64,000 nt of DNA from an uncultured Ignavibacteriales bacterium (GTDB taxonomy: Bacteria; Zixibacteria; MSB-5A5; GN15; FEB-12). Within the stretch, counting starts at the first letter, position 1. Each line of letters opens with the position of its first letter. The notes below the pieces were generated by a model. The model was not told the origin of the DNA. It saw only the letters and a program-made list of their open reading frames with translations, and did not search any database. The translations under genes and the position numbers were made by a program. Positions 10,909-64,000 of this stretch are shown piece by piece. Location of the stretch: positions 149,229 to 213,228 of the forward strand of contig CAYJOL010000002.1 of NCBI GenBank assembly GCA_964371785.1, read 5' to 3'.

Positions 10909-10913
10909 AGTGT

Positions 10914-25684: not shown

Positions 25685-27292
25685 ATGAAGATTCACCACC
25701 TGCTCGTCACGCTCGTCGCCGTCATAGGCGTTGTAGTCCAACAGACTTTCTGTCGAAGTGTTGACACCTACGCAAGCCGGTCCGCTGGTTCCGTAGTCTA
25801 CGATTTCCGGGAGTTTGTCGACGCCAACCGGATTCTCATGTTCATTGCCAACACCGGTTCCTTCGCTCGCGATATCGAATTGATTTTCGCCCCGGAAGCG
25901 GGTCTGTATTTCCCTTACACGAGTGTAGCCGATATCGAATCAGGAACGAATGTATCATCGCTGGTTTACTCGGCAGGTATCTGGATCGGTGGCCTTGTGC
26001 ACGACGAGATCAGGGTGTCGGTCGCCGAGTACTCCCAGGAATTCTATCCCGGTCCGATGTCAAATCACACCTTTCAGCCGGACGCAGAAACGAACCCGGC
26101 CTACCGGGTATACAAACTGTTTGCCGACAGCCTTGCCGATAATCCGAATTTTGATTACCTGAGTTGGCCGACCGATCAGGGTGCCCCGCAGGACGATTTC
26201 GGTCAACCTCTGATTATGGGCCGTCAGACCCTCTGGACCGTTTTCAACGACGCCAACGTGGCAGTCCATACTACCAACGCCGGTGGCACCGCTCCTCTGG
26301 GAGTCGAGATTCGCCAGCTCGTCTGGGCGACCGACCGACCGCCGGCGCACAGTTCGGTTTACATGCAGTACTGGATCTACAACCAGGGAGTTGACACGAT
26401 CACGGACTGCTATCTGTCTGTGTGGATAGACCCCGACCTGGGCGGATTCATCGATGATATTACCGGGTGTGACAGCTTGCACGACTTGTTCTACTGCTAC
26501 AATTCCGACAACAATGATGCAGTGTACGGATTACGCCCGCCCGCCCTGGGGTGTAAGATCCTCTACGGTCCGGTGGTCCCGTCCTCGCGTGACTCCGCAA
26601 AGTTCGGCTTTGGCTATCTTCAGGGATTTCGTAATCTGCCCATGTGCTCCTTTCAGGTCTATGGCAACGGGGGTGATATCCGCGATCCGGACACGGTCAC
26701 ACAGACCTACAATCTGATGAAGGGACTGATGCCCGACGGCAACGTACCGGCCAACGGAACACTCTTCAGATATCCGGGGGACCCGGTTACAGGCACCGGA
26801 GAACTCGATCTATGGCCGGGCGACAGGCGGATGATGGGTTCCTGCGGGCCGTTCACCATGAATCCCGGAGACAGCCAGGCGGTCACGGTAAAAATCTCAG
26901 CAGCTCAGGACAAAGACCGGCTCCGGTCGCTTGCCACGGTGCGCAATTATCTCGACGACACAACGGGACTATCGGGTGGTATAGACAGCAACCCGGCACC
27001 GCCGCTCGTGCCCGAGAAGTATGGCCTGTTTCAGAATTATCCGAACCCGTTTAATCCATCCACCACCATTCTTTATAATCTCCCGGCTTCATCGCATGTC
27101 ATGCTCGAAGTCATCAATTCGCTCGGCCAGCGCGTGAAGCTACTGGTCAATGAAATCAAGCCGGCTGGAGAATACGCGGTATCCTGGAACGGTACTGACA
27201 AGAACGGTGACAAGGTGGCCAGCGGCATATATTTCTACCGTCTGAAAGCCGGAGAGTATTCGGCCACTCGTAAAATGGTTCTTGTCCGCTAG
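25685..27292 (+). CDS. secreted protein with C-terminal T9SS (Por) sorting domain; N-terminal region of unknown function
   Basis: Signal peptide; the C-terminal ~80 aa match the type-A CTD (FQNYPNPFNPSTTI ... GQRVKLLVNE ... SGIYFYRLKAGEY). Confidence 0.7.
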   Translation: MKIHHLLVTLVAVIGVVVQQTFCRSVDTYASRSAGSVVYDFREFVDANRILMFIANTGSFARDIELIFAPEAGLYFPYTSVADIESGTNVSSLVYSAGIWIGGLVHDEIRVSVAEYSQEFYPGPMSNHTFQPDAETNPAYRVYKLFADSLADNPNFDYLSWPTDQGAPQDDFGQPLIMGRQTLWTVFNDANVAVHTTNAGGTAPLGVEIRQLVWATDRPPAHSSVYMQYWIYNQGVDTITDCYLSVWIDPDLGGFIDDITGCDSLHDLFYCYNSDNNDAVYGLRPPALGCKILYGPVVPSSRDSAKFGFGYLQGFRNLPMCSFQVYGNGGDIRDPDTVTQTYNLMKGLMPDGNVPANGTLFRYPGDPVTGTGELDLWPGDRRMMGSCGPFTMNPGDSQAVTVKISAAQDKDRLRSLATVRNYLDDTTGLSGGIDSNPAPPLVPEKYGLFQNYPNPFNPSTTILYNLPASSHVMLEVINSLGQRVKLLVNEIKPAGEYAVSWNGTDKNGDKVASGIYFYRLKAGEYSATRKMVLVR

Positions 27293-28563: not shown

Positions 28564-28962
28564 ATGAGGCAGAAAAAATCGTTTCGACGGCTCAGCCGAC
28601 GCGAGAGCCAGATAATGGATATCCTTTACCGCGCCGGGGAAGCAAAAGCCGCCGAGGTCCATGAGTCGCTTGCCGACCGGCCCAGTTATTCGGCGGTGCG
28701 GGCATTGCTTGGGATTCTCGAAGATAAGGGACTGGTGAAACACCGGCGCGACGGCCGGGCTTATCTTTACTCTCCAACTATAAGTCACACTGAAGCCAGC
28801 CAGTCTGCGCTGAAGCATCTGGTGCAAACATTTTTTGAAGGGTCAGTGGAGCAGGTGGTAGCGACCTTATTCAGCCTGTCGTCCACCAAGATGTCGATGG
28901 AGGAGTATGACCGACTGAGCAAGCTGCTTAATTCAGTCCGCAACCGGGAGGACGACAAATGA
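28564..28962 (+). CDS. BlaI/MecI/CopY family transcriptional repressor
   Basis: Penicillinase-repressor winged helix (RESQIMDILYRAGEAKAAEVHESL ... SAVRALLGILEDKGLV). Confidence 0.85.
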   Translation: MRQKKSFRRLSRRESQIMDILYRAGEAKAAEVHESLADRPSYSAVRALLGILEDKGLVKHRRDGRAYLYSPTISHTEASQSALKHLVQTFFEGSVEQVVATLFSLSSTKMSMEEYDRLSKLLNSVRNREDDK

Positions 28963-30335
28963 CTTTGATCATACAACATCTGGTGGACAGCTTAGTCAGT
29001 ATCAGCACATTTACGGGAGTAGCCGGGTATGTAGTAAAATCGACCCTCCTGATGGCGCTGTTACTGCTACTTCAGCCATTACTTCGCGCTGCCTCGCCCG
29101 CCGTGCGGCATCTCACTCTGCGGATCGGGCTGGCCGGCGTGCTTCTGCTGACGTTGCTCGTTTTCGTGATGCCAACCTGGTTAGTTCCCTATCCTGATTT
29201 CGTTGGCAAAATCACTCTCGGCACACAGACGAGCGCAGCAAACGATGCAGCTGCTGTCTCTTCCACTACCCGACTCTCGTGGTCTGAGCTTCTTTTTGTC
29301 GGCTGGTTACTCGGGTGTGTCGCGTTCGGACTCAGATACGCTGTTGGCATGATTTACGTTCGGCGCACTATTCGGGATTCTATTTTCTGTACCGAAGAAA
29401 CGTTGCTCACCACTGCCTCGCAGGTGGAGACCGAAGCCGGAATACAAAGACGAGTGCGCTACTTTCTTTCGGATCGGATAGTAATTCCGATGGCATGGCG
29501 GGTAATTCGGCCAGTCGTGATACTTCCAAGAGTGCTGCTGCCCAACAGCTCGGCGCTTCGGATGGTTCTCAAGCATGAACTCGCCCATATTAAACGTAAT
29601 GATATAGTCTGGCTCAATTTCGCATCGATTGTCACCATCCTGCATTGGTTCAATCCGTTGGCCTGGATGGTTCGCCGGAAGATGCTCAAAGAGAGCGAAT
29701 ACGCATGTGATGACTTTGTTTTATCGGCGGGAACGGCTGCCCAGGAGTATGCCCGCCTTCTGCTTGAATCAACCCGCGACTTTGGCCTCCCGGGGTCAAT
29801 GGTGATGACGAGCACTGCATATACAACACAATTGGAGGGAAGGATTATGTCAATCCTGACACATCGAAAACGCGAGCCATTTACGAGCAATCGTCTGGCT
29901 GCAGTAACAATCACTTTGGCCGCCATGATCGTGCTTCCACTCTCAACGGTCACTTTTCAGGCCTGTCAGAGTGGCGATACCAACAAGACTGAGACGGCGG
30001 CGGTTGCCCCCTCGACTTCCGAGGCTCTACCGTCGCCGGATGAGTTCGTGGCTGTGGATTCGACACCAGTGATGACTTATCAAGCGCCGACTGTCTACCC
30101 GCCCGATGCCAAAAGTGAAGGCGCGCAGGGCGCTGTTTGGGTAAAGGCGCTTATCGACAAGACGGGAGCAGTTGCGGAGATCCAAGTGGCGAAGTCATCC
30201 GGCGATGCCCGATTGGACAACGCCGCACTTGAGGCTGGAAAAGCCAACAAATTCACTCCAGCCCTCAAGGATGGCTTGCCGGTAGCCTCGTGGATCTCCT
30301 ACAAAGTCGTTTTTGAACTATCGGACAAGAAGTAG
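28959..30335 (+). CDS. BlaR1/MecR1-like M56 metallopeptidase fused to a C-terminal TonB domain
   Basis: Four TM helices, HEXXH (HELAHIKRND), and a C-terminal TonB_C (YPPDAKSEGAQGAVWVKALIDKTGAV ... KFTPA). Overlaps the blaI stop. Confidence 0.75.
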   Translation: MTLIIQHLVDSLVSISTFTGVAGYVVKSTLLMALLLLLQPLLRAASPAVRHLTLRIGLAGVLLLTLLVFVMPTWLVPYPDFVGKITLGTQTSAANDAAAVSSTTRLSWSELLFVGWLLGCVAFGLRYAVGMIYVRRTIRDSIFCTEETLLTTASQVETEAGIQRRVRYFLSDRIVIPMAWRVIRPVVILPRVLLPNSSALRMVLKHELAHIKRNDIVWLNFASIVTILHWFNPLAWMVRRKMLKESEYACDDFVLSAGTAAQEYARLLLESTRDFGLPGSMVMTSTAYTTQLEGRIMSILTHRKREPFTSNRLAAVTITLAAMIVLPLSTVTFQACQSGDTNKTETAAVAPSTSEALPSPDEFVAVDSTPVMTYQAPTVYPPDAKSEGAQGAVWVKALIDKTGAVAEIQVAKSSGDARLDNAALEAGKANKFTPALKDGLPVASWISYKVVFELSDKK

Positions 30336-35964: not shown

Positions 35965-36147
35965 ATGGCGTGCAGGGAAACCGATGCAATCGTATATTAA
36001 GTCTGACACATCGTTTTGCCAAGGAAGCGAGATGGGGATTTTCCCGGAATTTTTGCACTTCTCTGCCTCAATTTCGGATGCGTCCGTCCCCAGATGCTTC
36101 ATATTTGGACAGAGAGCAAAAAGAGTCGTAAGAAAGGACGCAAACAC

Positions 36148-37254
36148 ATGAGTCAGCAAATTATGGCAAGGGAAAAACAGCCAGAATCGGATAACCAGTC
36201 GATGACCAAGTTGCCTCCCAGTTCAATCATGTACCGTGCTCTGGTCGAACGGGATTCGACTTTTGAGGGAATCTTCTATGTCGGGGTGACCTCGACCGGC
36301 ATTTTCTGCCGCCCCACCTGCCCCGCCCGTAAACCGAGACCGGAAAATGTCGAGTTCTTTCCTTCCACGCAGGAAGCGCTCTATGCCGGATATCGGCCGT
36401 GTAATCGGTGTAACCCACTCGACCGGGATCGCAAACCCTCGGAAATAGTCAGCCGCCTGCTGGAGTTGGTCGAGCAATCGCCTTCGGGGCGAATTACCGG
36501 TGCGGACCTTCGGGCGCAGGGTATCGACCCATCGACTGCTCGCCGACAGTTCCAACGTCACTACGGTATGACTTTCCAGGCGTATCATCGCGCCCGACGT
36601 ATGGGACTCGCCTTGCACGAAATTCGAAAGGGAGAAAGTGTGATTGGAGCGCAAATCGAACATGGTTATGAATCAGCCAGCGGATTCTGGGACGCGTTCA
36701 AGCACCTTTTTGGGACGCCACCAAGCAAAGCGGGACAGGTTGACTGTCTATTCGCCCGATGGATTGACACTCCGCTGGGAGCGGTGCTTGCGCTGGCCAA
36801 TGACAACGGACTCTATCTGCTGGAGTTTGTCGATCGACGCGGCCTTGAAAACGAAATCGTGCGCCTTCGCAAACGGACGGGCTATATTGTTGTACCGGGA
36901 AATCACGAGCACCTTGACACGATTGCAGATGAAATCAAAGCGTATTTCGACGGCACATCATTCGAATTCAGTGTTCCCATCATTCTGACCGGTTCGGAGT
37001 TTGAGCAGTCGGTGTGGAAAGTGCTTCGTACAATCCCACCGGGCCGAACGCAATCTTATGCCTGGATGGCACAGCAGCTTGGCAATGCGAATGCGACCCG
37101 CGCGGTCGGCCGCGCCAACGGACGCAATACGCTTGCGATTATTGTGCCGTGTCACCGGGTCATTCGCGCCGACGGGAGCCTCTGCGGCTATGGTGGTGGT
37201 ATCTGGCGGAAACAATGGCTGCTGGAGCACGAGCGGAAAATCACAGGAAAGTGA
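36148..37254 (+). CDS. ada: bifunctional Ada: methylphosphotriester-DNA methyltransferase / AraC-type regulator / O6-methylguanine-DNA methyltransferase
   Basis: Ada Zn domain (FYVGVTSTGIFCRPTCPARKP), AraC HTH, and the Ogt active site (IIVPCHRVI). The ORF is open from 36016; start chosen at ATG 36148. Confidence 0.75.
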   Translation: MSQQIMAREKQPESDNQSMTKLPPSSIMYRALVERDSTFEGIFYVGVTSTGIFCRPTCPARKPRPENVEFFPSTQEALYAGYRPCNRCNPLDRDRKPSEIVSRLLELVEQSPSGRITGADLRAQGIDPSTARRQFQRHYGMTFQAYHRARRMGLALHEIRKGESVIGAQIEHGYESASGFWDAFKHLFGTPPSKAGQVDCLFARWIDTPLGAVLALANDNGLYLLEFVDRRGLENEIVRLRKRTGYIVVPGNHEHLDTIADEIKAYFDGTSFEFSVPIILTGSEFEQSVWKVLRTIPPGRTQSYAWMAQQLGNANATRAVGRANGRNTLAIIVPCHRVIRADGSLCGYGGGIWRKQWLLEHERKITGK

Positions 37255-37302: not shown

Positions 37303-37974
37303 CTAGCCGGTCGGTTGGGCAAGGATATTCGGCGAGCCTGCTAATCTCTGGTGCGAGTAACCCATCGAGGCCACGGTTGCGATAACTTCATCCGAGCGCG
37401 TTTCTACAATCAGTACCGGACGATGATTCTCGATCATCTTTCGCATCCCGGCCAGCACCTGTGACTCATAACCCTCGGCATCGATCTTGACTAACGTAAT
37501 TCTCTGTTTGATCGGGAGCAAATCCAGGGCCACTGTAAGCACTGCCAGATTACTTTCCCGATCAGGGTCACAGTGAGCTTCGTAGTAATTGTAAAGGCCG
37601 GCCGTAGACTGCGGGATGGACATCCCGACAACATCGAGCTTATCCGACACCGCGGCGTTTATGAGGGTCACATTGGTATGGGCGAACGACTGGACATTGG
37701 AGGCAAGCAAGGAGAATGTGGTTGGCACCGGTTCTATCGCGATTACCCGTCCGGTCGCGCCGACCAGTTCGGAAAATCTTTTGGTGTAATGGCCGACATT
37801 CGCGCCGATATCAATTACCCAATCGCCGGAGGAGACAAACTTCGAGAGGATCCTGTAATCCGGTTCTGGGGACACAAAAGTGCCACGTCGAATCTGGCGG
37901 CGGTAGTAAATTCGTTTGAGCCCACATCGCCATCGGTGAGGCAAGTGAGCCGCTAAACGCTTGAGCAGCGTCAT
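37303..37974 (-). CDS. FkbM-family SAM-dependent methyltransferase
   Basis: VIDIGANVGHYT motif and the FkbM-domain pattern. Confidence 0.6.
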   Translation of the reverse strand: MTLLKRLAAHLPHRWRCGLKRIYYRRQIRRGTFVSPEPDYRILSKFVSSGDWVIDIGANVGHYTKRFSELVGATGRVIAIEPVPTTFSLLASNVQSFAHTNVTLINAAVSDKLDVVGMSIPQSTAGLYNYYEAHCDPDRESNLAVLTVALDLLPIKQRITLVKIDAEGYESQVLAGMRKMIENHRPVLIVETRSDEVIATVASMGYSHQRLAGSPNILAQPTG

Positions 37975-38087: not shown

Positions 38088-39047
38088 TTATACTCCGTAC
38101 TTGAGGTTGAGTTCCCGGGTCAGCCAGGGGAGGATTTTCCCATCCCTCATATGTGAGACAATACGTTGCCAACTGACTTTTCGTAGCATCCGCGGATTCA
38201 GCAGGGCTTCTCGCGTCCCAACCACGGCGGCATGTCCTTCTCCACCGAACTGAAAAGCCGGATTTCGGTCATCGTAGATGAGTACCACATGCCCACCATC
38301 TAGAGACACCGAATTGTCCGGACGCACTCCTATCGCCAGCACATTCCTGACCAGTTGATAGTTCTTGTAAACCGGACACGGATTCAGGTCCTGATCGTTT
38401 CGCCAATGGAAGAGCTTTGGCACATAGTCCCAATACAAAATTCCCACCTCGGACAATGAGCATCGACTCTTACGCCCTCTTTGAACCGAAAAGGTACCGT
38501 CGCACCAGTCGCTGCGATAGTTCGAGTCATCCGACCGTATCCGGGGACGGGAGCAGGTACCGATTTCCTGCTCGGTGAACTTGCATTCGATCGCTATCTG
38601 ATACTCGCCGGAAAAGAAACCATCAAGGCTGGTTGAACGGGATTCGCCAAGATGGGTAATCTCGTGCTCCATCTCAAAACTGTCTCGCGACACCCTCCTC
38701 TCGCCCAACAGAGCTTCGTCTTCGTCGTCTTTTAGTTCACTCAGAAGATGTATTGAGTCATGCACCACCAGGTTACCCAACACGCTCTGAGCCAGCGCCT
38801 GGGAGCTGTTCATACTGCCGAACCACCGGTGCCTGTCCTTGTCTGGTACTAGGTCAAGCAGACTTTTCCGTTCATTGGGTGTTGCCTCCGGATCGATAAT
38901 GACGTTCCGCCATGCTTCGCTTTTGACAAAGACAGGCGGGCGGTCATCTTGAGCATCCGCTTTCTCAAATAGATTTTGCCCATCTGGGAATATGCGTTTT
39001 ACGTAGTCCCAGTAACGGCGGTTGAGATCGGTTTGGAAATCTGACAT
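38088..39047 (-). CDS. hypothetical protein with possible PD-(D/E)xK nuclease-like core
   Basis: LDGFFSGEYQIAIECK (D ... E-x-K) within an alpha/beta-like region. No other recognisable domain. Confidence 0.3.
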   Translation of the reverse strand: MSDFQTDLNRRYWDYVKRIFPDGQNLFEKADAQDDRPPVFVKSEAWRNVIIDPEATPNERKSLLDLVPDKDRHRWFGSMNSSQALAQSVLGNLVVHDSIHLLSELKDDEDEALLGERRVSRDSFEMEHEITHLGESRSTSLDGFFSGEYQIAIECKFTEQEIGTCSRPRIRSDDSNYRSDWCDGTFSVQRGRKSRCSLSEVGILYWDYVPKLFHWRNDQDLNPCPVYKNYQLVRNVLAIGVRPDNSVSLDGGHVVLIYDDRNPAFQFGGEGHAAVVGTREALLNPRMLRKVSWQRIVSHMRDGKILPWLTRELNLKYGV

Positions 39048-53009: not shown

Positions 53010-54227
53010 CTAGCGGCGACCGAAAATGATACTGTATGTGACCGATGTGACAGGCTGTTCTTTATCGTCGGTTCTTACGGTAACACTGCCGGATAAATTC
53101 TTTTTGGCCCGGAGCGTTGCGGGTGTTGGAAGCATGGTTATCTCGTATTTCTTGCCCGCAAGCGAAGTGTCCACGTGGAGCGCAAGTCTTCCGTCGGCAT
53201 CATTGACATCCAAAAGTTGAAGCTGAACTCCGTTTTCGGTGCCGACAACTGTAACAACTTGTTTGTCCGGCGTCATTTCACCTTTCGACGTATCCACAAA
53301 GTAACGCACAAATTCCGGCGAAATGTCGTAATAGCCGACCACCGAACCTCGAATCTGCAAAGCAGCTTGCGAGCTGGAGCGGTCGCCTGCGCGAACTGTG
53401 ATTGTCGCATTGATGCGGCCTACCGGCATGCTCGATGTCCCCGTGATTTCAACCGTCAGCCGTCTCTTATCTGCGGCTGGTGAGTCAAGTATCTTCGCGG
53501 TTATGTTCGCTGATGACGAATTGATCTTTATAGTGTTAAGCAGGGTCGGATCTTTAACGATCAAAGTCGCCGTTTTGGTGATTGATTGGCCCTTGCGAAT
53601 CTTCCCAAAATCGATGCTATACTCGTCGAAACCGAAGACTACCTCAATCGTGCCGGAGACATATAATAACGCACCTGAACTTCGAGGATCATTGGATTCA
53701 ACCGTAATCGACTTTCTCTGCTGGCCTTTCTTGTTGCCGCTGTCAAAGGTGACTTCAATCTTTCCTTCCCCACCCGGGGGAATGTCCGTGTCGGTAAGCA
53801 CGGCCGCGGTGCATCCTCACGAACCCTTGGCCTTAATCAGGCGCAATGGGGCATCACCAATATTCCTGACGACAAATGTATGTGACACTTTCGTCCCCTG
53901 AGCAATCGTACCGAAATTGAACTCTGTTTCCGGGAAACTAATTCGGGGCCCACCGGTGGTTGCAGTTGTGTCGATAGCCGCCGGATTTTCGACAGACTGC
54001 GTGGTAGCCCGGGAGTTCACCGCGGCTGACTCGGATATGCTTGAAGGTGAGTTGTGAAGAATCATCCACACCGCTACCACAGTCGCTATAACCACCAGTC
54101 CACCGAGCAACCAGGCGGTATAGCGCCCGGACTTGATGCGGCTTGCCCGGCCCGATAATACCTGCCCGTCCTTCTTCACTGCAGTCCTGGCGGCCGGCTT
54201 AGTATTCCGTTGTTTTCGTTTTCCCAT
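53010..54227 (-). CDS. membrane-anchored DUF1573-domain protein interrupted by an in-frame TGA (53817-53819) at the conserved Cys of the S-C-G-C-T motif (pseudogene, or Sec/readthrough candidate)
   Basis: ORFs 53817-54227 and 53010-53801 are in the same frame. Reading through gives ... APLRLIKAKGS[TGA]GCTRAVLTDTDIPPGGEGKIEVTF, which matches the DUF1573 consensus G-S-C-G-C-T ... PG..G.I.V.F. N-terminal signal-anchor. Confidence 0.55.
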
Positions 54228-54237
54228 ATCTGTCTCT

Positions 54238-54903
54238 TCAGTCCTCTAGACGACCATCAATCAGACGAAGTCGCGTATTTCCAAATCTTGCTGCTTCCAA
54301 GCTATGCGTAACCATGATGACTGTCCGACCTTCTCTCTCGTTCAGTTCCTTGAGAATTCGTAAGACCTCAAGGGACAGATTTGGATCAAGGTTTCCCGTC
54401 GGTTCATCGGCAAGTATTACGTCTGGACTGTTCGCCAGAGCGCGAGCAATCGCAACCCGCTGCTGTTGACCGACAGACAACTCGCGTGGCAGGTGCTCTT
54501 TGCGGTCTTTTAGTCCGACTTTCTCGAGCAACTGTTCAGCAGACGCTCGGACAGTCCCGTCCTGCTCCTTACTGAATATCATCGGCAACATGACATTTTC
54601 CAACGCAGTCAGATATGGTATCAAATTGAAAGTTTGCAGCACAAATCCAACTTTACGATTACGGTATTCTGCCATTTCTGGTTCGGACATCGCATAAACG
54701 GCTTTCCCGGAGAACGCAACAGTACCTGCCGACGGCCGAATAAGACCACCAAGTGTCAGCAGGAGAGTAGTCTTCCCCGACCCCGACTGTCCCGTAACGG
54801 CCACAAAGCTTCCTCGCTCAACGGTCAAGGAAATGTTATCCAGCGCCCGCACCGTACCATGTTGCGAATCGTAGACTTTGCTCAGATTCTCTATGGTAAA
54901 CAT
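54238..54903 (-). CDS. ABC transporter ATP-binding protein (LolD/MacB/FtsE-like)
   Basis: Walker A GQSGSGKTT, signature LSVGQQQRVAIARAL, Walker B ILADEPTGNLD. Confidence 0.85.
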   Translation of the reverse strand: MFTIENLSKVYDSQHGTVRALDNISLTVERGSFVAVTGQSGSGKTTLLLTLGGLIRPSAGTVAFSGKAVYAMSEPEMAEYRNRKVGFVLQTFNLIPYLTALENVMLPMIFSKEQDGTVRASAEQLLEKVGLKDRKEHLPRELSVGQQQRVAIARALANSPDVILADEPTGNLDPNLSLEVLRILKELNEREGRTVIMVTHSLEAARFGNTRLRLIDGRLED

Positions 54904-54906
54904 GGC

Positions 54907-56127
54907 TCATGTCTCCTGCATGATAACTGCCGGATCAAACCGCGCCGCCCGGTAGACCGGAATGATGCTGCCCAGTAAGGCTATCAACACTGCCACCACT
55001 ACCGCAAACAGCAGATAGAGCGGCATTGGTGATACTTGAAGCCCGGCAAGTTGCGGTCCAAGGATCATGGCCGATCCGGTTCCAACGATGAAACCGCCAA
55101 TGCCGCCAACTACACCCAGGAACACTGCTTTTGACAAAAAGAGGCGGTAGATCGCTGAACGCTTCGTGCCAATGGTGATCAGAATGCCGATCTCCCGACG
55201 GCGCTCTTCGACATTCGCCCACATGTAGTTGCCAATTGTAATGGCACCTACTATGATGATGATCACCAGAAAGACCATGGATATCTTGCTCATGAGCTGA
55301 TTGGTCCGGATCTGCGTGCTGACAATCTGATTGATCGTCGTGATCCGCGTATCCGGCAAAATATTGCGGAGCTTGCCGAGGAGTCCATCCGAGATGGCCG
55401 AACAGCATCCCATGATCTCGATTGCGCTGACCTGCTGGCCAGTCCCCAAAAGCTGCTGAACCACGTGCAGGTGGGCATACACTCGACTGTCGTCAATGGT
55501 GCCGGTCTCCGGAATGACGCGGGCAACAGCAAAGGTCGATCCCTCTATTGTCACGGTCTGACCCTCGCGCAGGCTCAACCGCTGCGCAGCGCTGCTGCCG
55601 ACTAACACATCTGTGGTCGCTAGTGAGTCAACCGCCTTGCGTTGCAGCCTTTCGTCCTGATATCCAAAGGATTGATTAGCAGTGTTGCCAGGATCACACG
55701 CCGCGTTGAGGCCCGTTCCGACCAGTCCCGCTGTTTGCCAGATTGGTTTCGAGGCCAGCTCGTTAGCAGGTAGAATACCGGTGAGGATAATTGGCACATC
55801 GCCAACTTTCACCCGCCGGGTTAGCTTTGGGGAAAGGTTGTCAACCCCCGGCAACATCGATGTGGCCAGCCGTTCGACATAGTCTTCTGAAAACGTCGGG
55901 GCATCGACATCAGCCGAGTAGTAGTCATCGACCGACGCGGCCTGCGGTAGAATCAGGATATTCGCGCCCAGATTGTCGAGACTGACCTTGACAGCTTTCT
56001 CGGACACAGCAGAAACTGATTGAATTCCTACGATGACCGCGATGCCGAGCGTTATCCCTAGCAGAGCTGACACAAGTTGCGACTTCCGCAGCCACAACTC
56101 GCGCCAGAGTATAGTCTGAAGCTTCAT
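54907..56127 (-). CDS. FtsX-like ABC transporter permease (LolE/MacB-type)
   Basis: N-terminal TM helix, a large periplasmic domain, and three C-terminal TM helices (FtsX fold). Confidence 0.75.
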   Translation of the reverse strand: MKLQTILWRELWLRKSQLVSALLGITLGIAVIVGIQSVSAVSEKAVKVSLDNLGANILILPQAASVDDYYSADVDAPTFSEDYVERLATSMLPGVDNLSPKLTRRVKVGDVPIILTGILPANELASKPIWQTAGLVGTGLNAACDPGNTANQSFGYQDERLQRKAVDSLATTDVLVGSSAAQRLSLREGQTVTIEGSTFAVARVIPETGTIDDSRVYAHLHVVQQLLGTGQQVSAIEIMGCCSAISDGLLGKLRNILPDTRITTINQIVSTQIRTNQLMSKISMVFLVIIIIVGAITIGNYMWANVEERRREIGILITIGTKRSAIYRLFLSKAVFLGVVGGIGGFIVGTGSAMILGPQLAGLQVSPMPLYLLFAVVVAVLIALLGSIIPVYRAARFDPAVIMQET

Positions 56128-56138
56128 AACACGTGCTC

Positions 56139-56900
56139 TTACTTCTTTGGTGCGCAGGAAGCGTCAGGCTTCGCAACGGTAGAGGGACAGCAGCCGCCCA
56201 CTTTCTTGGTCGCGGTAGTAACGAGATCGGTAACTTGCATAGCTCCGGTATACATTCCGGCGATTTGACCCTGAGCATTGGCCACTAGCGTCACTGGTTC
56301 ATTCGACTGCAGATTCACTTTCATTTCCGTCAAGAAACCCGCTTCGACTGGGTCATCCATGTCGACAGTAACTTGCACCGATTTGCCGGCCATCTGCTGG
56401 CAAGCGGCGGCACAGGCACTATTGACGGACGCGGTCGAGACCATGCTCTTGCGACTGGCGGTGATGAATACAGCGTTCCCTTCAGAAAGAGCCTTAATGA
56501 CCTGCGCTTTCTTGGGAGATGGTACAAGCTTCACCAACTGATCAACCGTGGCCTGAGCAGCCACAACACCGCCGACAATGACGCCCGAGGACGAGCTCAC
56601 CAGTATGAGTGGCACCGGAGCGGTGGTCAGACCGTACTTTTTGATGAAGTCCACTTCAGCGGCGTCACCGCGATTGACTTCGATTAGTATCGAGCCGGGG
56701 ATCCGATCGACTGCCTGGACGGTCAGCTGGCGCGCTTGGTCAAGCTGCATCGCCCCGGCATCATAAACAAGAATTAAGGCGACTTTCCCGTTCTCCGCCG
56801 CCGTCTCCAGTTGTTGTTGTGCCACACCAAAGGCCGCTACCGCCATAAGCAGCACAGCAACGGTCAGGATGCTGATTTTCTTGAACATCTGGTCCTCCAT
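56139..56900 (-). CDS. secreted hypothetical protein, possibly tandem thioredoxin-fold-like, with Cys-rich C-terminal tail
   Basis: Signal peptide, two similar alpha/beta halves, and tail GGCCPSTVAKPDASCAPKK. No CxxC motif. Confidence 0.35.
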   Translation of the reverse strand: MEDQMFKKISILTVAVLLMAVAAFGVAQQQLETAAENGKVALILVYDAGAMQLDQARQLTVQAVDRIPGSILIEVNRGDAAEVDFIKKYGLTTAPVPLILVSSSSGVIVGGVVAAQATVDQLVKLVPSPKKAQVIKALSEGNAVFITASRKSMVSTASVNSACAAACQQMAGKSVQVTVDMDDPVEAGFLTEMKVNLQSNEPVTLVANAQGQIAGMYTGAMQVTDLVTTATKKVGGCCPSTVAKPDASCAPKK

Positions 56901-57059
56901 TCTGTGGTTACCATCTTATCGTGGACTCATATAGTCGATTATGTTGTCCATTTTATGAGCAGGCATCGCTCCTGCGGCCACCAAGTTCTTATACACTTTC
57001 CTATATTACTGGTCGAACCAAACACGCGCTATCGTTGGGTAATACATCCATTCGCCACG

Positions 57060-57530
57060 CTATCTAGCCATGATGCCACTTGACTCCAACCAGTCTTTTA
57101 CTTTTGAGCCTATTTCATCTCGTATGCGCCGGAAGACCGCCAGCACCTCTTCTTCGGTCCCTTTCGATTCCGCAGGATCTTCAAATGGCCAGTGCAGTTT
57201 ATTCCCCGTTCCGGGAAATACCGGACAGTTTGCGGCCGCGTTGTCGCAGACAGTAATGACATAGTCGAATGTCTGTCCAAGGTATTCGGACAAATGGTCC
57301 GAGGTGTGATTCGATATATCGATGCCAACTTCGCGCATGACCTGAATTGCGCGCGGATTCACTCCTTTTGGTTCAAGACCCGCCGAGGACACCTTTACCC
57401 TCTTACCTCCGTATTGCCGAAAGAACCCTTCGGCCATCTGCGATCGACAGGAGTTACCGGTACATATCATCAGAACGTGAAGTTGTTTCATTCGATTTGC
57501 CGTTGTGTAGAGTCTCCGGTCGAGCATCAT
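57060..57530 (-). CDS. arsC: arsenate reductase, LMW-PTP family (thioredoxin-coupled ArsC)
   Basis: CTGNSCRSQMAEG P-loop; Cys82 and Cys89 (CDNAAANCP). Confidence 0.85.
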   Translation of the reverse strand: MMLDRRLYTTANRMKQLHVLMICTGNSCRSQMAEGFFRQYGGKRVKVSSAGLEPKGVNPRAIQVMREVGIDISNHTSDHLSEYLGQTFDYVITVCDNAAANCPVFPGTGNKLHWPFEDPAESKGTEEEVLAVFRRIRDEIGSKVKDWLESSGIMAR

Positions 57531-57814
57531 TATTTATCCGCCGCGCAGCGCCCCGAGGCAACCAGGCTGTTCAGGCGTTCACGGTCTTGTGAGAACGGAT
57601 CGGTCTGGACGAGATGTTCACGAAGAAATACGCGCAGGTCGTTCATTACCGCGGTTCCCGAAAGGCGATAGTGCACCCACTTGCCGTCGCGGCGGTCCAG
57701 CACCAATCCGGCTGATTTCAATTTATTCAGATGCCGCGACACCGTCGATTGCGGCAAGCGGAGCGCCTCGAAAATGTCGCAGACACACAGTTCACGTTCC
57801 AGCAGGAGAATCAC
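57530..57814 (-). CDS. arsR: ArsR family arsenic-responsive repressor
   Basis: ELCVCDIFEAL As(III)-binding motif and HTH. Confidence 0.85.
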   Translation of the reverse strand: MILLLERELCVCDIFEALRLPQSTVSRHLNKLKSAGLVLDRRDGKWVHYRLSGTAVMNDLRVFLREHLVQTDPFSQDRERLNSLVASGRCAADK

Positions 57815-57864
57815 GATTCTCAGGCGAGTTGGATCTCCCAGGCCTTTGAAAATCTCGTGTGCTT

Positions 57865-58935
57865 TCAGGATGACACCCCCACCGCCGTATCCGGCATCTT
57901 AAAATACCTCCGCTGAAAATACAGGGCGACGTTTACGAGCGATATCAATACCGGAACTTCGACAAGCGGTCCGATAACGGCGGCAAAAGCCACCCCCGAG
58001 TTGATGCCGAACACCGCCACCGCAACAGCGATGGCCAGTTCGAAATTGTTGCTCGCGGCGGTAAACGAGAGTGTCGCCGTCTTCGAATAATCCGCGCCGA
58101 TCTTGCGGCCCATCCAGAAACTCACCAGAAACATCACTACGAAGTAGATCAGAAGTGGAATTGCTATGCGAAGCACATCCATGGGGATTTGTACAATCAG
58201 ATTCCCTTTCAGGCTGAACATGACAATTATCGTGAACAAGAGCGCCACCAGAGTTATCGGGCTGATTCGAGGGATGAACTTCTGCTCGTACCAGATCTTG
58301 CCTTTGGTCTTCAAGGCAATCAGACGGGTCAGCATGCCGGCAAGAAACGGAATTCCCAGATAGATGAAAACCGATTGAGCGATCTGCTTCATGCTGACGT
58401 CGACGACTGAACCGCTCAAACCGAAGAGCGGCGGAAGCACGGTTATGAAGACCCAGGCATAGAGCGAATAAAATAACACCTGAAAAATCGAATTGAATGC
58501 CACGAGACCGGCGGCATACTCGGTGTCTCCTTTGGCCAGCTCATTCCAAACGATCACCATGGCAATGCACCGCGCCAGCCCGATCATGATCAGACCGACC
58601 ATATACTCCGGGTACCCCCGCAGAAAAATAATCGCCAATGCAAACATGAGGATTGGCCCGATCACCCAGTTCTGTACGAGCGAGAGACCGAGAACCTTGG
58701 TGTTGCGAAATACATCGCTGAGTTCCTCGTACTTTACCTTGGCCAACGGCGGGTACATCATCAGGATGAGGCCGATCGCGATCGGGATATTAGTGGTGCC
58801 AACCTGGAAGTGGTTGATGAATCCTTCGACCGATGGCGCCAGGTACCCTAGGGCGACACCTGCCACCATGCCGAGAAATATCCAGAGAGTAAGGTAACGG
58901 TCGAGAAACGCAAGTCTTCGTATCACCGGCTGCAT
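57865..58935 (-). CDS. acr3: arsenite efflux permease ACR3 family
   Basis: Ten TM helices. ACR3-type sequence ([13 protein letters not shown] ... [14 protein letters not shown]). Confidence 0.85.
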
Positions 58936-59045: not shown

Positions 59046-59804
59046 TTACATTCGGGATAATAAGTGAAGCAGTCCGTCGAGGATTGTAATAGGATGAGGC
59101 GGGCAGCCCGGTATATAGAGGTCAACCTTTAGTTTGCTGTCAGCGCCATTATGTACCTGGCGGTGATTGATGTAAGGTCCCCCTGATATCGCACAGGCAC
59201 CGACAGCGATCACGATTTTCGGGTCAGGAACCGCTTCGTACGTTTTTTCCAGCGCGAGTCTCATGTTCTCCGTAACCGGGCCGGTAATAAGCAAGCCGTC
59301 GGCGTGTCTCGGCGAAGCCACGAACTGGATACCGAACCTGCCCAGATCGAAAACGATCGTTCCCAGAACATTGATCTCGACTTCGCATCCGTTGCACCCC
59401 CCCGCGCTTACCTGCCGCAGGCGAAGTGATCGCTTGAACAAACGCATAGATTCATCGTTCAATTTCCGGACGAGCGCTTTTTCTGTATCATGTCGCACCA
59501 ACAGGTCTTCGCGTGTGCTGCCTGCGAGGCTGAAATCCCTGGTATACTGAATCAGATCATCGGGGCAGGCGCGTTCGCATTCGCCGCAGAACAGACACCG
59601 CCCCAGGTCAATTTCCGGATGACTGTTAATGACCTTTATGGCGGATGTCGGGCAGATATCGAGACAGGTCGCGCATCCATCCGGGCACGGCAGAGCGCTT
59701 ATGAGCGGGTATCCCCGAAAACGGTCCGGCAGAACAGGTGGTTCGTCGGGAAATCCTACGGTCCGGTTCCCGAAGTTCAAACGTGCAAGCAACGCCTTCA
59801 GCAT
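59046..59804 (-). CDS. fused 2x[4Fe-4S] ferredoxin (NuoI/HycF-like) plus small subunit (NuoB/HycG-like) of a group-4-hydrogenase-like complex
   Basis: CPDGCATCLDICP and CLFCGECERACP ferredoxin motifs, then CNGCE ... GACAISGG ... PGCPP (the four Cys of the proximal cluster). Confidence 0.7.
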   Translation of the reverse strand: MLKALLARLNFGNRTVGFPDEPPVLPDRFRGYPLISALPCPDGCATCLDICPTSAIKVINSHPEIDLGRCLFCGECERACPDDLIQYTRDFSLAGSTREDLLVRHDTEKALVRKLNDESMRLFKRSLRLRQVSAGGCNGCEVEINVLGTIVFDLGRFGIQFVASPRHADGLLITGPVTENMRLALEKTYEAVPDPKIVIAVGACAISGGPYINHRQVHNGADSKLKVDLYIPGCPPHPITILDGLLHLLSRM

Positions 59805-59813
59805 AATTTACTT

Positions 59814-61289
59814 CTAAAGATCATGTCCACAGTATGACAGGTTAAAACTCTTGTTGCATAAGGGGAAATCGGAAATCTGTTGATTGCGCATGGCCATAGC
59901 CAAACCCGCCCAGTTATGAAACGATGGATCTATCACCTTGTACCACTTGAATCGGCCGGCCTTATCGGTGCACGCGATATGGCAGATCTCTCCACGCCAA
60001 CCTTCCGTAAGCGCAATCGCTACGGAGTCCGGCTGCAGGGAACCGATAGACTGATGAGACGGCCCGTCGCGCAAGGCGGCAAGTTGCGCCCGGATGAATT
60101 CCACTGAACGTACTATTTCCAGCCAGCGTACGTAGGCGCGGCCAAAAACATCTCCGGTATTCCAGAGGGAGACCGGGATCTGGGCAAAACTGAAAACATC
60201 GGAGGGGTAATCCAGGCGGGCGTCCTGTTCGATACCTGCGGCGCGCGCTGGTACTCCCACCAGTCCCAATTCTTTGCATCGCGCGGCGGTCAACATCCCC
60301 GTACCTTCGAATCGATTAATTACAGACGGCGTCTCCCATAGCAGTTGAGATGTCTTACTGACGTCGCTGTACGCCTGATCCAGCTTTTGCCGGAACAATT
60401 TTAACTGATCGGACGTCAAGTCAAATTCTACTCCGCCAGGACGTGCGATACCCCGGCCCAGACGGCTGCCGCAGATGTATGCTGTCAAATTCAAGAAGTC
60501 TCCGCGTATGCGGCCGCAGTGTGCCGCGACAGGCAGATAACCAACATCGCCGGCCAACGCCCCCAGATCACCGGTGTGGTTAGCCAGACGCTCAAGCTCC
60601 AGCGCTATGCTCCGTATAATCATCCCCCGCAAGGGGACACGAGTGTGGGACAGCGACTCAATGTTCTGGCTATACGCAGTGACGTGACCGATAGTGGTGT
60701 CTCCGGCAAGTGTTTCCATGTAGGGGATCGTTCGAACCGAGGGTCCGCCGATCAGCGCTTCTTCGATTCCCCGGTGCTGGTAGCCGAGCGATATTTCCAG
60801 ATGGAGGACCTGCTCGCCGGCGCAGGAAAATCTGAAGTGACCGGGTTCGATAACGCCGGCGTGTACCGGTCCTACCGCCACCTCGTGAACATCGGAGCCG
60901 GCAACAGCGTAGAAGTTCGTGACGCCGATTGGCGTTTTCGTGAACCGAATCGGTTTGAGCCAGGGATGACCATGCGGAGTTATATTCCAGGTCTCAGCGA
61001 TCTCTCGTTCAAACCAGTGCGCCTGCGCACATCGCGCGGAAAGCGATGGATACTCACGGGCCACCAACGTCGAAACGAATTCTATACCTCCGCGATCCCG
61101 GGCTGTGGTAAGCGAAAAGAGTTGAAATTCTCTGGACTCTACCGGTTGAGCAAACAGCGCCACGAGGCGATCGTTGCGGCAAACGGCCGTCGTGATCACA
61201 TCGGCAAACTCATCATACGGCATGACCGGGATGCTCCCGAATGGTACAATCTCGCAATTGTGACACAAATGAGGGCGAGGGGCAGACAT
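59814..61289 (-). CDS. NuoC-NuoD-like large subunit of an energy-converting-hydrogenase-related complex; NiFe-ligating cysteines apparently absent
   Basis: NuoC-like N-domain; NuoD/HycE-like core (GPVHAGVIEPGHFRF ... LGYQHRG). At the position of the L1 motif RxCGxC the sequence reads ETLAGDTT. There is no C-terminal DPCxxC. Confidence 0.65.
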   Translation of the reverse strand: MSAPRPHLCHNCEIVPFGSIPVMPYDEFADVITTAVCRNDRLVALFAQPVESREFQLFSLTTARDRGGIEFVSTLVAREYPSLSARCAQAHWFEREIAETWNITPHGHPWLKPIRFTKTPIGVTNFYAVAGSDVHEVAVGPVHAGVIEPGHFRFSCAGEQVLHLEISLGYQHRGIEEALIGGPSVRTIPYMETLAGDTTIGHVTAYSQNIESLSHTRVPLRGMIIRSIALELERLANHTGDLGALAGDVGYLPVAAHCGRIRGDFLNLTAYICGSRLGRGIARPGGVEFDLTSDQLKLFRQKLDQAYSDVSKTSQLLWETPSVINRFEGTGMLTAARCKELGLVGVPARAAGIEQDARLDYPSDVFSFAQIPVSLWNTGDVFGRAYVRWLEIVRSVEFIRAQLAALRDGPSHQSIGSLQPDSVAIALTEGWRGEICHIACTDKAGRFKWYKVIDPSFHNWAGLAMAMRNQQISDFPLCNKSFNLSYCGHDL

Positions 61290-62767
61290 CAGTGACCTCC
61301 CAGTAAGCGAGCCGCCTCGGCCAGCAGTTCATTCAGGGCGGGCGGAATATATATGCCCAAGATCAGTACCATTACACAAAGCAACGCCGGCGACACAAGT
61401 GACAGACGTGGTTCTTCGCTGACGGTGGGCGGAGTCGTTGCCTGACTTGTCCCATAAGCCATGCCTATCACGATGCTGATCATGGCAATGAATATGATCC
61501 CGAGCGCAAGCAGCAGAAGCACGGCGATAAGTTCATGTCCTGAATCAAATGCCGCGCGCAGAATAGTCAATTCGCTCTGGAACAAGCCGAACGGAGGCGT
61601 CCCGGTTATGGCCAGCAGGCCGGCCATCCAGAGTACGCCCGAGCGAGGAAGCGTGCCGACCAGACCTTTGACGGCCGCGATTGACTTGGTCTTGTATCGC
61701 GCCAGGATATTTCCGGCCACCAGGAACAACATCCCCTTTGTCAGTGAATGATTGACCGCGTGCAGCATGGCGCCGAAAGCGCCGAGCCCGCCGAGCCCAA
61801 CACCCACCGCGAGGAGTCCCATATGCTCGATACTTGAGTACGCCAGCATGCGCTTGTAATCAAGCTGCGCGACGATGAAAACGGTGGCGAAAACAACCGA
61901 CAGCAGGCCGAAGATTAGCAGCAACTCTCGCGCAAACGCACCCGACCCTGCGGCATCTATTACCTGAGTGATTCGCAGGATACTCAGAAAGGCGCAATTT
62001 AACAGGGCGCCGGAAAGGAGCGCCGAGACAACCGACGGCGCTTCACTATGAGCATCGGGCAACCAGCTGTGCAAGGGCGCCAGGCCCATTTTCGTCCCAT
62101 AACCGACGAGCAAGAAGATAAATGACATCTTGAGCCAGGGAACTTGAAGCACATGGGCGTGCGCAATAAGGTCCTCGACCACCAATGGCAGGGCGGCGGC
62201 TTCGTTCCCGGAAGCTGCCAGGGCCAGAAAGAACGTACCGAGCAGAGCCAGAGCTATGCCGACGGAACAAATCAGTAAGTACTTCCAGGTAGCTTCCAGC
62301 GAGCGATGGTGCCGATGAAAATAAATGAGCGGAGCGCTGGTAAGTGTTGTTGCCTCCACCGCCACCCAGAGTAGGCCGAAGTTATGACTGACCGTGACGA
62401 GTGTCATCATCGATAAGAACAACAGAAGACAACCGACAAATACTGCCTCCGGTTCATTCACGAATAAGGCCGTCTCCTGGAAGTCAGGCCTGAATCCCGG
62501 CTGTTCATTCGCCAGATAGGATACTGCATATAGCGCGGCGGCCAGGAAGAGACCGCTGACTACAGAGAGAAAAAGTAAGCCAAGCGCGTCAACTTGAAGC
62601 CATCCATCCATAATCGGGTCAGGACGGGTAAACCACATCAGTCCCGTCAGCGTCGCGTGTACCACCGCGGTCACAACCAGGAGCAACCTACGCACATCGT
62701 TTCTTCTCGTGACAAACGAAGTGAGTCCGGCAAGTGCAGGAAGCATGACGAGCAGGAGAATTACCAT
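61289..62767 (-). CDS. antiporter-like membrane subunit (NuoL/M/N-MrpD-HyfB family)
   Basis: About 14 TM helices and a proton-conducting-transporter pattern (WLPDAHSEAPSVVSALLSG). Confidence 0.75.
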   Translation of the reverse strand: MVILLLVMLPALAGLTSFVTRRNDVRRLLLVVTAVVHATLTGLMWFTRPDPIMDGWLQVDALGLLFLSVVSGLFLAAALYAVSYLANEQPGFRPDFQETALFVNEPEAVFVGCLLLFLSMMTLVTVSHNFGLLWVAVEATTLTSAPLIYFHRHHRSLEATWKYLLICSVGIALALLGTFFLALAASGNEAAALPLVVEDLIAHAHVLQVPWLKMSFIFLLVGYGTKMGLAPLHSWLPDAHSEAPSVVSALLSGALLNCAFLSILRITQVIDAAGSGAFARELLLIFGLLSVVFATVFIVAQLDYKRMLAYSSIEHMGLLAVGVGLGGLGAFGAMLHAVNHSLTKGMLFLVAGNILARYKTKSIAAVKGLVGTLPRSGVLWMAGLLAITGTPPFGLFQSELTILRAAFDSGHELIAVLLLLALGIIFIAMISIVIGMAYGTSQATTPPTVSEEPRLSLVSPALLCVMVLILGIYIPPALNELLAEAARLLGGH

Positions 62768-63453
62768 GTGTCCGGCTCCTTGTCGAAGCCAGCCCTGCGG
62801 CTTTTGAACCAGTCTCTGAGCGTGCTCAACTGCCCCGATTCTATGTTATCGAACGTTCGATTAATCTGGAACACCATAATTCCCATGATGAATACGCCCA
62901 CGAATACATCGAGCAGTATGCCAATTTCAATCAGCATCGACTCGGACTGGGCAAAAAAGACACCGAAGGCATAGATCCCGTTCTCCAAGACGAGGTACCC
63001 CATTATTTGCATGAGAGCCTGCCTTCGACTCACGAGTAAAAACAATCCGGTAACGATAGTAAAGAAGACCATCGGGATAGCGAGACGGTACCCGGCATGA
63101 TCAGGCAATGGCAGTACATACCCCCACCACAACGAACTCCCCATCACGAGTATGCCGATCAACAGCGACGGCATCGGACCGACATAGTACGTAATATGCC
63201 GGACCGAGCTAAGCTCACGGAGACTTCGCATCAGCAGGCGGGGGAAAACAATACCCTTGAGAAGGATTACGAGAATAGCGATCACAGCAAGTCGAACGGT
63301 CAGTCCCCCCTGATGCACACACAGCGGCAGTACTCCGAGGGCGAATCCCTGAAGGGTGACCAGGCGGACGGAAGCCTTGAGCCACTCGGCGCCGAGGAGC
63401 AGGAAGTTCACGATTATAATCAGGACAATGACTGCATTTACCAGATCATACAT
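62761..63453 (-). CDS. HyfE-like small membrane subunit of hydrogenase-4-type complexes
   Basis: Six TM helices. The C-terminal region (RRQALMQIMGYLVLENG ... EIGILLDVFVGVFIMG) resembles HyfE. Confidence 0.5.
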   Translation of the reverse strand: MYDLVNAVIVLIIIVNFLLLGAEWLKASVRLVTLQGFALGVLPLCVHQGGLTVRLAVIAILVILLKGIVFPRLLMRSLRELSSVRHITYYVGPMPSLLIGILVMGSSLWWGYVLPLPDHAGYRLAIPMVFFTIVTGLFLLVSRRQALMQIMGYLVLENGIYAFGVFFAQSESMLIEIGILLDVFVGVFIMGIMVFQINRTFDNIESGQLSTLRDWFKSRRAGFDKEPDTW

Positions 63454-63456
63454 ATA

Positions 63457-64000
63457 TCACCCGAGAACCAGAATAGCTGCCAGCATTGAGATCGCCCCTG
63501 CTCCGACCAGAAGCTGGGGGACCTTGAGCAATCGCAAACGGGCCATCGACGACTCCACCACTCCAACGGTTATCGCAAGCAATACCATTCCACCAAGCGC
63601 GAATCCCTCACGCATCCAGATGCTGGAATCAACCAGATTGGGCGATGCAACTCCGACAAACAGCGACCCAAGCAGCCAGAGTTTCAGCGCGCTTCCGTAC
63701 GAGACGATTCCGAAATCCGGGCCGCCGTGATCCAGAACCATCACTTCATGGATCATGGTCAATTCAAGATGGGTCGCGGGATCATCGACCGGAATCCGAG
63801 AGTTTTCGGCGAGCAGTAGAATGAACAGTGATGTCGCCACAAGCGCCGGCGCCCCGATACTCCACCCGGTCACTCCGGAAGTATACAGGATCGTGCTTAA
63901 AGACAGGCTGTGACTCAGACGGGATAGCGAGAGCAAGCCGACCAGCAGGGCCGGCTCAATCAGCATGGCATACGTGATTTCTCGACTGGCTCCCATTCCC
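63457..64000 (-). CDS. NuoH/HycD-like membrane subunit, 5'-truncated by the window edge (C-terminal 180 aa present)
   Basis: LLAENSRIPVDDPATHLELTMIHEV matches the NuoH/HycD quinone-loop region (E-x-N-R-x-PFD). The frame is open to the window edge. Confidence 0.65.
   Translation of the reverse strand, partial: GMGASREITYAMLIEPALLVGLLSLSRLSHSLSLSTILYTSGVTGWSIGAPALVATSLFILLLAENSRIPVDDPATHLELTMIHEVMVLDHGGPDFGIVSYGSALKLWLLGSLFVGVASPNLVDSSIWMREGFALGGMVLLAITVGVVESSMARLRLLKVPQLLVGAGAISMLAAILVLG

Follow-up and report, generated by a model that had tools for sequence, protein, structure and literature searches.

A probable OS_HP2/DUF1573 selenoprotein gene with two RNA hairpins downstream of its in-frame UGA, located beside arsenic-resistance genes

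The stretch of DNA analyzed here, which we call the window, comprises 64,000 nucleotides (nt) of contig CAYJOL010000002.1 (assembly GCA_964371785.1), from an uncultured bacterium placed in the Zixibacteria, and its minus strand carries a gene that is divided by an in-frame TGA. Two open reading frames (ORFs), 53817..54227 (136 amino acids) and 53010..53801 (263 amino acids), lie in a common frame, and reading through the TGA at 53819..53817 yields a single sequence of 405 codons; the joining of these ORFs had been proposed in a preliminary description made from the letters of this DNA, and its coordinates, frame, and read-through length are all borne out. The codons around the TGA read AAG GGT TCG TGA GGA TGC ACC, that is, K-G-S-*-G-C-T, and this context, together with an alignment of homologs that carry cysteine (Cys), bears out the further proposal that the TGA stands where DUF1573 proteins have the leading Cys of their S-C-G-C-T motif. 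We consider it very likely, as the best explanation of the locus, that a single, undisrupted gene occupies 54227..53010 (minus strand) and that its product is an OS_HP2/DUF1573 selenoprotein of 405 residues, anchored in the membrane and facing outward, in whose gene the UGA at 53819..53817 appears to be decoded as selenocysteine (Sec) and not to terminate translation. The features of the gene are the following, with positions within the hairpins counted in nt from the U of the UGA.

53010..54227, minus strand: read-through coding sequence, 405 codons including the predicted Sec137; predicted layout N-in signal anchor, low-complexity linker, DUF1573 immunoglobulin (Ig)-like domain with U-G-C, and two more beta-sandwich domains
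54057..54119, minus strand: predicted transmembrane signal-anchor helix, residues 37-57, after a K/R-rich cytoplasmic tail (from hydropathy)
53649..53942, minus strand: DUF1573/OS_HP2 Ig-like domain, residues 96-193 (PF07610, NF041425)
53817..53819, minus strand: UGA, probable selenocysteine codon for residue 137, which opens the U-G-C motif (from column conservation)
53811..53819, minus strand: codons TGA GGA TGC of the U-G-C motif, predicted selenol/thiol site in a beta-turn
53786..53803, minus strand: spacer hairpin H1, CCGUG / 8-nt loop / CACGG in the window, nt 17-34 (from covariation)
53766..53782, minus strand: distal hairpin H2, UUCCCC-CGGGU-GGGGAA, nt 38-54, encoding I-P-P-G-G-E; proposed SelB-binding apical hairpin

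Profile matches were made with Cys placed at the position of the stop codon. For Pfam PF07610 (DUF1573), the match extends from residue 96 to residue 193 and takes in positions 1-97 of the 98 in the profile (E = 7.3e-33; 112.9 bits, the cut-off being 26.1), continuing across the stop at residue 137; the earlier statement that the N-terminal domain matches DUF1573 throughout is thus borne out over nearly the full profile. Against the NCBIfam model NF041425, "OS_HP2 family (seleno)protein," the protein scores 106.4 bits, which exceeds the curated cut-off (100 bits), with residues 99-195 aligned to positions 2-98 of the 98 in the profile. Residues 1-36 contain 12 K/R and one D/E and are followed by a 21-residue hydrophobic helix (residues 37-57; hydropathy window up to 2.49), which fits the signal-anchored protein of the preliminary description. 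An N-in signal anchor of this kind is predicted to put the DUF1573 domain outside the membrane.

As a structural proxy for the window protein we used a model of the Cys-form homolog P0026, which is the closest full-length Cys form (40% identity). This model has three beta-sandwich domains (predicted local distance difference test, pLDDT, 88.5) and places C95-G96-C97 in the turn between strands 86-93 and 98-102. Foldseek searches with the three-domain model returned generic tandem Ig-like arrays only, for example ciliary ASH/HYDIN proteins and cadherins, and a sequence search of the PDB gave no significant match.

The family to which the gene belongs has already been catalogued, so that the window gene is a further member of it and the reading of the preliminary description is a rediscovery. 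OS_HP2 was named in a metagenome study of Olavius symbionts (PMC1976440), the Global Ocean Sampling (GOS) study lists "OS_HP2 pfam07610 UxC" (PMC2398784), and reviews list the family as DUF1573 with a UGC motif (PMC9312934, PMC13188914). The descriptions date from 2007-2008 (PMC1976440, PMC2398784), and the family has been without a proposed function since 2007. The window protein shares with it the domain, Sec as the first residue of a U-G-C motif, and the existence of Cys-form homologs, and no family-defining feature differs; compared with the family as published, the orthologous group of the window protein additionally has the signal anchor and, toward the C-terminus, a further two beta-sandwich domains. 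In the papers on the family that we consulted, no selenocysteine insertion sequence (SECIS) is given for OS_HP2 (Figure 5 of PMC1976440 depicts other families), and an arsenic-resistance (ars) context is not mentioned. What is new here is the unusual geometry of a proposed SECIS and an ars-linked cassette, whereas the recoding itself is ordinary and the side observations reported below are of moderate interest.

The TGA is conserved far beyond the window. Three independent ENA assemblies from different samples contain the window locus (L004-L006) with the identical TGA and the identical split into 136 and 263 amino acids. Among the metagenome loci that we fetched, 62 carry TGA at the exact column and 10 carry TGC or TGT; with looser matching there are about 66 TGA loci besides the window locus and 19 Cys loci (TGC/TGT), so that aligning DUF1573 homologs, a check the preliminary description had suggested, finds Cys or TGA at the column. 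The proteins of the TGA-carrying loci are 26-63% identical to the window protein. They provided an alignment set of 57 unique Sec-form sequences with TGA at the column, in all of which (57/57) the G and C of the U-G-C motif are invariant. In a protein search the roughly 40 closest homologs (38-63% identity) have about 262-265 amino acids and start just past the TGA column, and the few full-length homologs are single polypeptides with S-C-G-C-T at the site. When genome contigs were scanned with this one protein, the only loci retrieved were three distant ones of the Cys form (L001-L003).

Further evidence comes from the codons of the 57 sequences. On both sides of the TGA the amino acids are conserved and third codon positions are free, with typical entropies of 1.5-2.0 bits, and we therefore conclude that a single frame is translated through both halves. 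Within the window, UGA serves as the ordinary stop codon of 18 of 43 other genes; the genetic code is therefore standard, and a reassigned code, which we had considered, is ruled out. When all stop-to-stop junctions of the window were scanned, neither a further in-frame stop within a recognized domain nor a second selenoprotein candidate came to light. Gene callers split the gene into two fragments in all assemblies examined. Because standard gene finders cut it in two, the selenoprotein is systematically misannotated in metagenomes, and herein lies the practical importance of the present gene call.

Two RNA hairpins follow the UGA in the Sec forms, and we analyzed them in an ungapped alignment of the 57 sequences. 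H1 is variable in sequence, with 83.7% of its alignment cells paired and compensatory changes in 4 of 7 pairs. Its covariation score of 0.221 compares with at most 0.071 (about threefold lower) in slid controls and was reached by none of 500 shuffles, and its pair probability in the window RNA is 0.88. H2, in contrast to H1, is nearly invariant: the family form UUCCCC-CGGGY-GGGGAA is paired in 57/57 sequences, and the sole substitutions in the stem keep a G-U wobble. The third positions of its codons, ATT CCC CCG GGY GGG GAA, have an entropy of about zero, except for the last base of the loop, whereas third positions elsewhere are free to the extent given above. Cys forms that encode the same I-P-P-G-G-E-G do so with mixed codons, and thus the synonymous sites are frozen in the Sec forms only. 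The exact H2 motif occurs once per locus and only in Sec forms; allowing up to one substitution, it is present in all Sec forms inspected and in no Cys form. The mean minimum free energy (MFE) of the Sec forms is -9.1 kcal/mol for the H1 region and -8.0 for H2, as against -2.7 and -3.1 in 16 Cys forms. From the UGA onward, the MFE structure of the window RNA consists essentially of H1 and H2 (-15.5 kcal/mol; H2 alone, -7.9). On this comparative evidence, both hairpins are peculiar to Sec forms within the family.

The preliminary description had pointed to a different hairpin, GCAC-CGCGGCC-GUGC at 53812..53798, with the remark that it did not resemble a canonical bacterial SECIS. That hairpin is present and the remark was apt, but it is not conserved, as its 3' arm varies in relatives. 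It does form part of the MFE structure when 6 nt upstream of the UGA are included in the fold (z-score -0.79); we rejected that structure, which is not conserved.

A side observation concerns Cys forms that are nested in the Sec clade (L089, positions 10001-11206; L064; L040), the nesting being taken from a neighbor-joining tree of the short domain. These carry a partly decayed H2, for example ATT CCT TCG GGC GGG GAA, and the suggestion, from these sequences, is that such forms may reflect Sec-to-Cys reversion followed by relaxed constraint on the RNA.

In the bSECISearch consensus for bacterial SECIS elements (PMC13188914), the apical loop has 3-9 nt and lies 16-37 nt from the UGA, the upper stem has 4-16 bp, one of the two leading loop bases is a G, as a rule with G or U after it, and the MFE is -7.5 kcal/mol or lower. 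H2, with a 5-nt loop, a 6-bp stem, a G at loop position 2 followed by another G, and its MFE of -7.9 kcal/mol, lies within these specifications for loop, stem, G, and energy. Its spacing does not, as the loop starts 40 nt after the A of the UGA, which is 3 nt past the 16-37 range; the loop of H1, at 18 nt, is within the range but lacks a conserved G. No Rfam SECIS model or other Rfam family matched, at either gathering or permissive thresholds. Like consensus elements of the Escherichia coli fdhF type, H2 is situated in the coding sequence just 3' of the UGA and has a small G-containing apical loop. Unlike in those elements, a covarying H1 fills the interval in place of a lower stem, and the sequence of H2 is invariant across very divergent hosts.

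We propose that H2 is a putative SelB-binding hairpin and that H1 acts as a structural spacer that would bring H2 to a workable distance. With the UGA in the A site, SelB-GTP-Sec-tRNA(Sec) would be tethered by H2, the 40 nt would, with H1 folded, come down to an effective distance of about 16 nt of single strand, and Sec would be inserted in place of the action of release factor 2. H2 may be easy to evolve, because the coding of Pro-Pro-Gly-Gly (CCN CCN GGN GGN) is intrinsically self-complementary. If H2 does act in this way, the SECIS would be a clean natural case in which an RNA signal is superimposed on a conserved peptide motif, and its position just beyond the distance rule of current predictors would make it useful for refining such models.

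Explanations of the TGA other than Sec were weighed against this evidence. The preliminary description named as alternatives a mistake in sequencing or assembly and a nonsense mutation of recent origin, which would have left a pseudogene; in their favor, a single base separates TGA from TGC/TGT, and no Sec machinery is seen within the window. Nevertheless, the same TGA is repeated in independent assemblies from different samples and kept across about 66 loci down to 26% identity, and error and recent mutation are therefore excluded. Furthermore, the 268 codons downstream of the TGA show clear conservation at the protein level, and the window-wide scan of stop junctions found no further disrupted genes nearby, which the preliminary description had named as a sign of pseudogenization. 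We consider this explanation vanishingly unlikely. The UGA could instead be a true stop between two polypeptides of 136 and 263 amino acids, the second being restarted at a GTG by translational coupling. This is how gene callers everywhere annotate the gene, and a GTG is present 15 nt past the stop in the window. The split, however, falls midway in a single beta-sandwich domain, the 15-nt "gap" codes for an invariant G-C-T-A-A, and the full-length Cys forms are single polypeptides. The downstream start codon of the gene callers is GTC, which is no start codon, in 33 of the 57 sequences, so that there is no conserved restart, and the hairpin specific to the Sec forms would be left without a role. 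Two separate polypeptides are thus extremely unlikely.

It is also very unlikely, although less so, that the UGA is read through by something else, such as a near-cognate tRNA (Trp, Cys, or Arg) or structure-stimulated read-through. The same observations that would favor such read-through weigh against Sec insertion: selA, selB, selD, and tRNA-Sec were not found within the window (no tRNA and no Rfam match), no SelA, SelB, or AIRS domain was detected among its scanned ORFs, and H2 lies beyond the canonical distance and has no match among the Rfam SECIS models. Additionally, the searchable literature holds no experimental demonstration of Sec insertion for any member of the family. On the other side, homologs with a conserved Cys at the position make a classic Cys/Sec pair, the family is curated as a selenoprotein, and H2 has the small G-containing apical loop, the stem length, and the stability of a bacterial SECIS. 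Bacteria are not known to maintain stop-codon read-through of useful efficiency over such evolutionary depth. We therefore strongly favor Sec, in line with the preliminary description, which called a UGA at a conserved redox-type Cys the hallmark of a Sec codon, on the grounds of column conservation, the Cys-form partners, and the match to NF041425.

Upstream of the selenoprotein gene the window contains a block of genes in the order acr3-arsR-arsC-hyp253-ftsX-abc-Sec gene, all on the minus strand, of which the selenoprotein gene is the last. The block includes genes for an ATP-binding cassette (ABC) system and for a secreted protein that we call hyp253.

54238..54903, minus strand: ABC ATPase (LolD/FtsE/MacB-like), directly upstream of the selenoprotein gene in the same operon and beside it in at least 13 loci
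54907..56127, minus strand: MacB-type ABC permease with FtsX and MacB periplasmic core domains (Pfam MacB_PCD and FtsX)
56139..56900, minus strand: hyp253, secreted, 253 amino acids; signal peptide and two domains of thioredoxin fold; C-x3-C conserved; C-terminal tri-Cys tail, disordered
57060..57530, minus strand: arsenate reductase ArsC of the low-molecular-weight protein tyrosine phosphatase (LMW-PTP), thioredoxin-coupled type (Pfam LMWPc)
57530..57814, minus strand: ArsR-family repressor with an ELCVCD motif (Pfam HTH_5)
57865..58935, minus strand: ACR3 arsenite efflux transporter (TIGR00832, an equivalog model; 472 bits against a cut-off of 282.8)

ArsC scores slightly below the cut-off of TIGR02691 (167.3 against 174.3 bits), and the permease has weak matches to MacB/LolCE models of NCBIfam and is conserved at 47-90% identity.

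The arrangement recurs. The block of hyp253, permease, ATPase, and selenoprotein is found at 11 or more other loci, with arsR directly before it in nine, and five loci without the ABC genes have the selenoprotein gene directly among arsR and arsC/acr3. In about 20 of the 26 orthologous loci with enough flanking sequence, ars genes lie within 4 kb. Besides window positions 53010-58935, loci embedded in ars genes include L087, L088, L010, L011, L014, L017, L024, L026, and L034, and the ars cluster of L088 also contains arsD and arsA. The searchable literature neither links DUF1573 to arsenic nor describes a cassette with FtsX/MacB-type genes among ars genes.

Type VII ABC systems (MacB, LolCDE, FtsEX) act on periplasmic partners or substrates. 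The pair in the window shares with them an FtsX permease with the MacB periplasmic core domain and an ATPase like LolD or FtsE, but its NCBIfam scores are all far under the equivalog cut-offs, no membrane-fusion or outer-membrane partner adjoins it, and its conserved partners are instead a thioredoxin-fold protein with three Cys and a selenoprotein. In one of the assemblies that contain the window locus (L006, positions 7670-8895 of ERZ13692939), the FtsX permease is called as 355 plus 53 amino acids, compared with 406, and the selenoprotein gene is unchanged; strain variation, a frameshift, or a fault in the assembly of that sample accounts for the split.

The protein hyp253 belongs to a family of unannotated secreted proteins of about 250 amino acids with at least 200 members and no Pfam or NCBIfam match. 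The C-x3-C is invariant in this family, and the C-terminal tri-Cys tail is disordered and Lys-rich (GGCCPSTVAKPDASCAPKK). Homologs are encoded at L008, L010, L011, L015, L018, L019, L021, L031, L087, and L088, and the gene always lies just upstream of a MacB-type ABC pair. A comparison can be made with the arsenic metallochaperone ArsD, which has a thioredoxin-type fold with a vicinal Cys pair and a third Cys. Like ArsD, hyp253 has a thioredoxin-type fold and a Cys triad that could bind As(III), and is encoded in an ars context beside an ATPase-driven exporter. It differs in that no sequence similarity was detected (the Pfam ArsD model gives no match), in being secreted, in having two thioredoxin-fold domains with the Cys triad in a C-terminal tail, and in that its neighbor is a MacB-type ABC system and not ArsAB. 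The likeness would be one of analogy only.

Because the selenoprotein gene is placed in an ArsR-linked cassette adjoining arsC and acr3, we suggest that the protein, acting in the periplasm with its cassette partners, may bind or redox-process As(III) or some similar thiophilic metalloid. Beyond the cytoplasmic membrane, the U-G-C motif would display a selenol and a thiol on a beta-turn of the Ig-like domain, and the selenoprotein, hyp253, the MacB-type permease, and the ABC ATPase would act as an ArsR-linked cassette beside arsC and acr3. The combined proposal, in which the protein is the selenol-bearing outward component of a hitherto undescribed ArsR-linked periplasmic As(III) cassette and is produced by means of a bipartite SECIS (H1 plus H2 at 40 nt) outside the current consensus, is tentative, and we hold it to be rather doubtful as a whole. 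Several considerations weigh against the functional part. Gene neighborhood is its sole ground, the Ig-like fold as modeled offers no clue to catalysis, and the structural picture derives from a Cys-form homolog of 40% identity and not from the window protein itself. Furthermore, ars genes are absent from the surroundings of L020, L022, L027, and L032 and of the distant Sec clade (e.g., L091).

The contrary possibility, to which we give appreciable credence while holding it short of probable, is that the ars neighborhood is coincidental or is a general metal- or redox-stress island, and that the protein has a role unconnected with arsenic, be it as a thiol-disulfide (selenenylsulfide) oxidoreductase of the periplasm or as a structural protein of the cell surface. 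The absence of ars genes from about 6 of the 26 orthologous loci and from the distant Sec clade would be expected in that case, as would the widespread occurrence of DUF1573 domains in proteins outside an ars context; L088 also holds thioredoxin-like, DsbD-like, and sulfur-transport genes, and C-X-C motifs can act as redox centers. Mere coincidence, on the other hand, fits poorly with the five loci in which the gene stands directly between arsR and arsC/acr3 and with the nine in which the cassette comes right after arsR. The ELCVCD site of ArsR is of the As(III) type, and the tri-Cys tail of hyp253 is typical of sites for trivalent metalloids. Should the arsenic proposal hold, arsenite handling by an extracytoplasmic selenol would link selenium use to arsenic detoxification. 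A bipartite class of SECIS, if real, may explain why SECIS-based predictors handle OS_HP2 poorly. In any event, the conserved ars placement offers a concrete hypothesis for a family that has lacked one.

Other genes of the window merit brief mention. A cluster at 59046-63996 (minus strand) resembles group 4 [NiFe]-hydrogenase or Mrp/complex I and encodes a NuoB-like protein with Fe-S domains, a fused 30-kDa/49-kDa large subunit, a Proton_antipo_M protein, and NuoK-like and NuoH-like proteins. Homologs of the large subunit are named "Ni,Fe-hydrogenase III large subunit" by the Joint Genome Institute (JGI), and the nearest named relative (67%) is from Candidatus Zixiibacteriota; the homolog P0039, from the protein search, is likewise labeled Zixibacteria. 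At 25685-27292 (plus strand) lies a gene for a 535-amino-acid protein with a C-terminal FlgD-Ig/Por_Secre_tail domain (type IX secretion sorting), a feature that hints at a host from the FCB group. At 28564-30335 (plus strand) the ORF of a small BlaI-like repressor runs into the beginning of the next one, which encodes a BlaR1 (peptidase M56) protein with a TonB C-terminal domain fused to it, an uncommon sensor architecture. Finally, a gene whose product has a "restriction endonuclease associating with ARP" domain stands beside one for an FkbM-type methyltransferase (38088-39047 and 37303-37974, both minus strand), downstream of a fusion of an Ada-type methyltransferase and regulator at 36016-37254.

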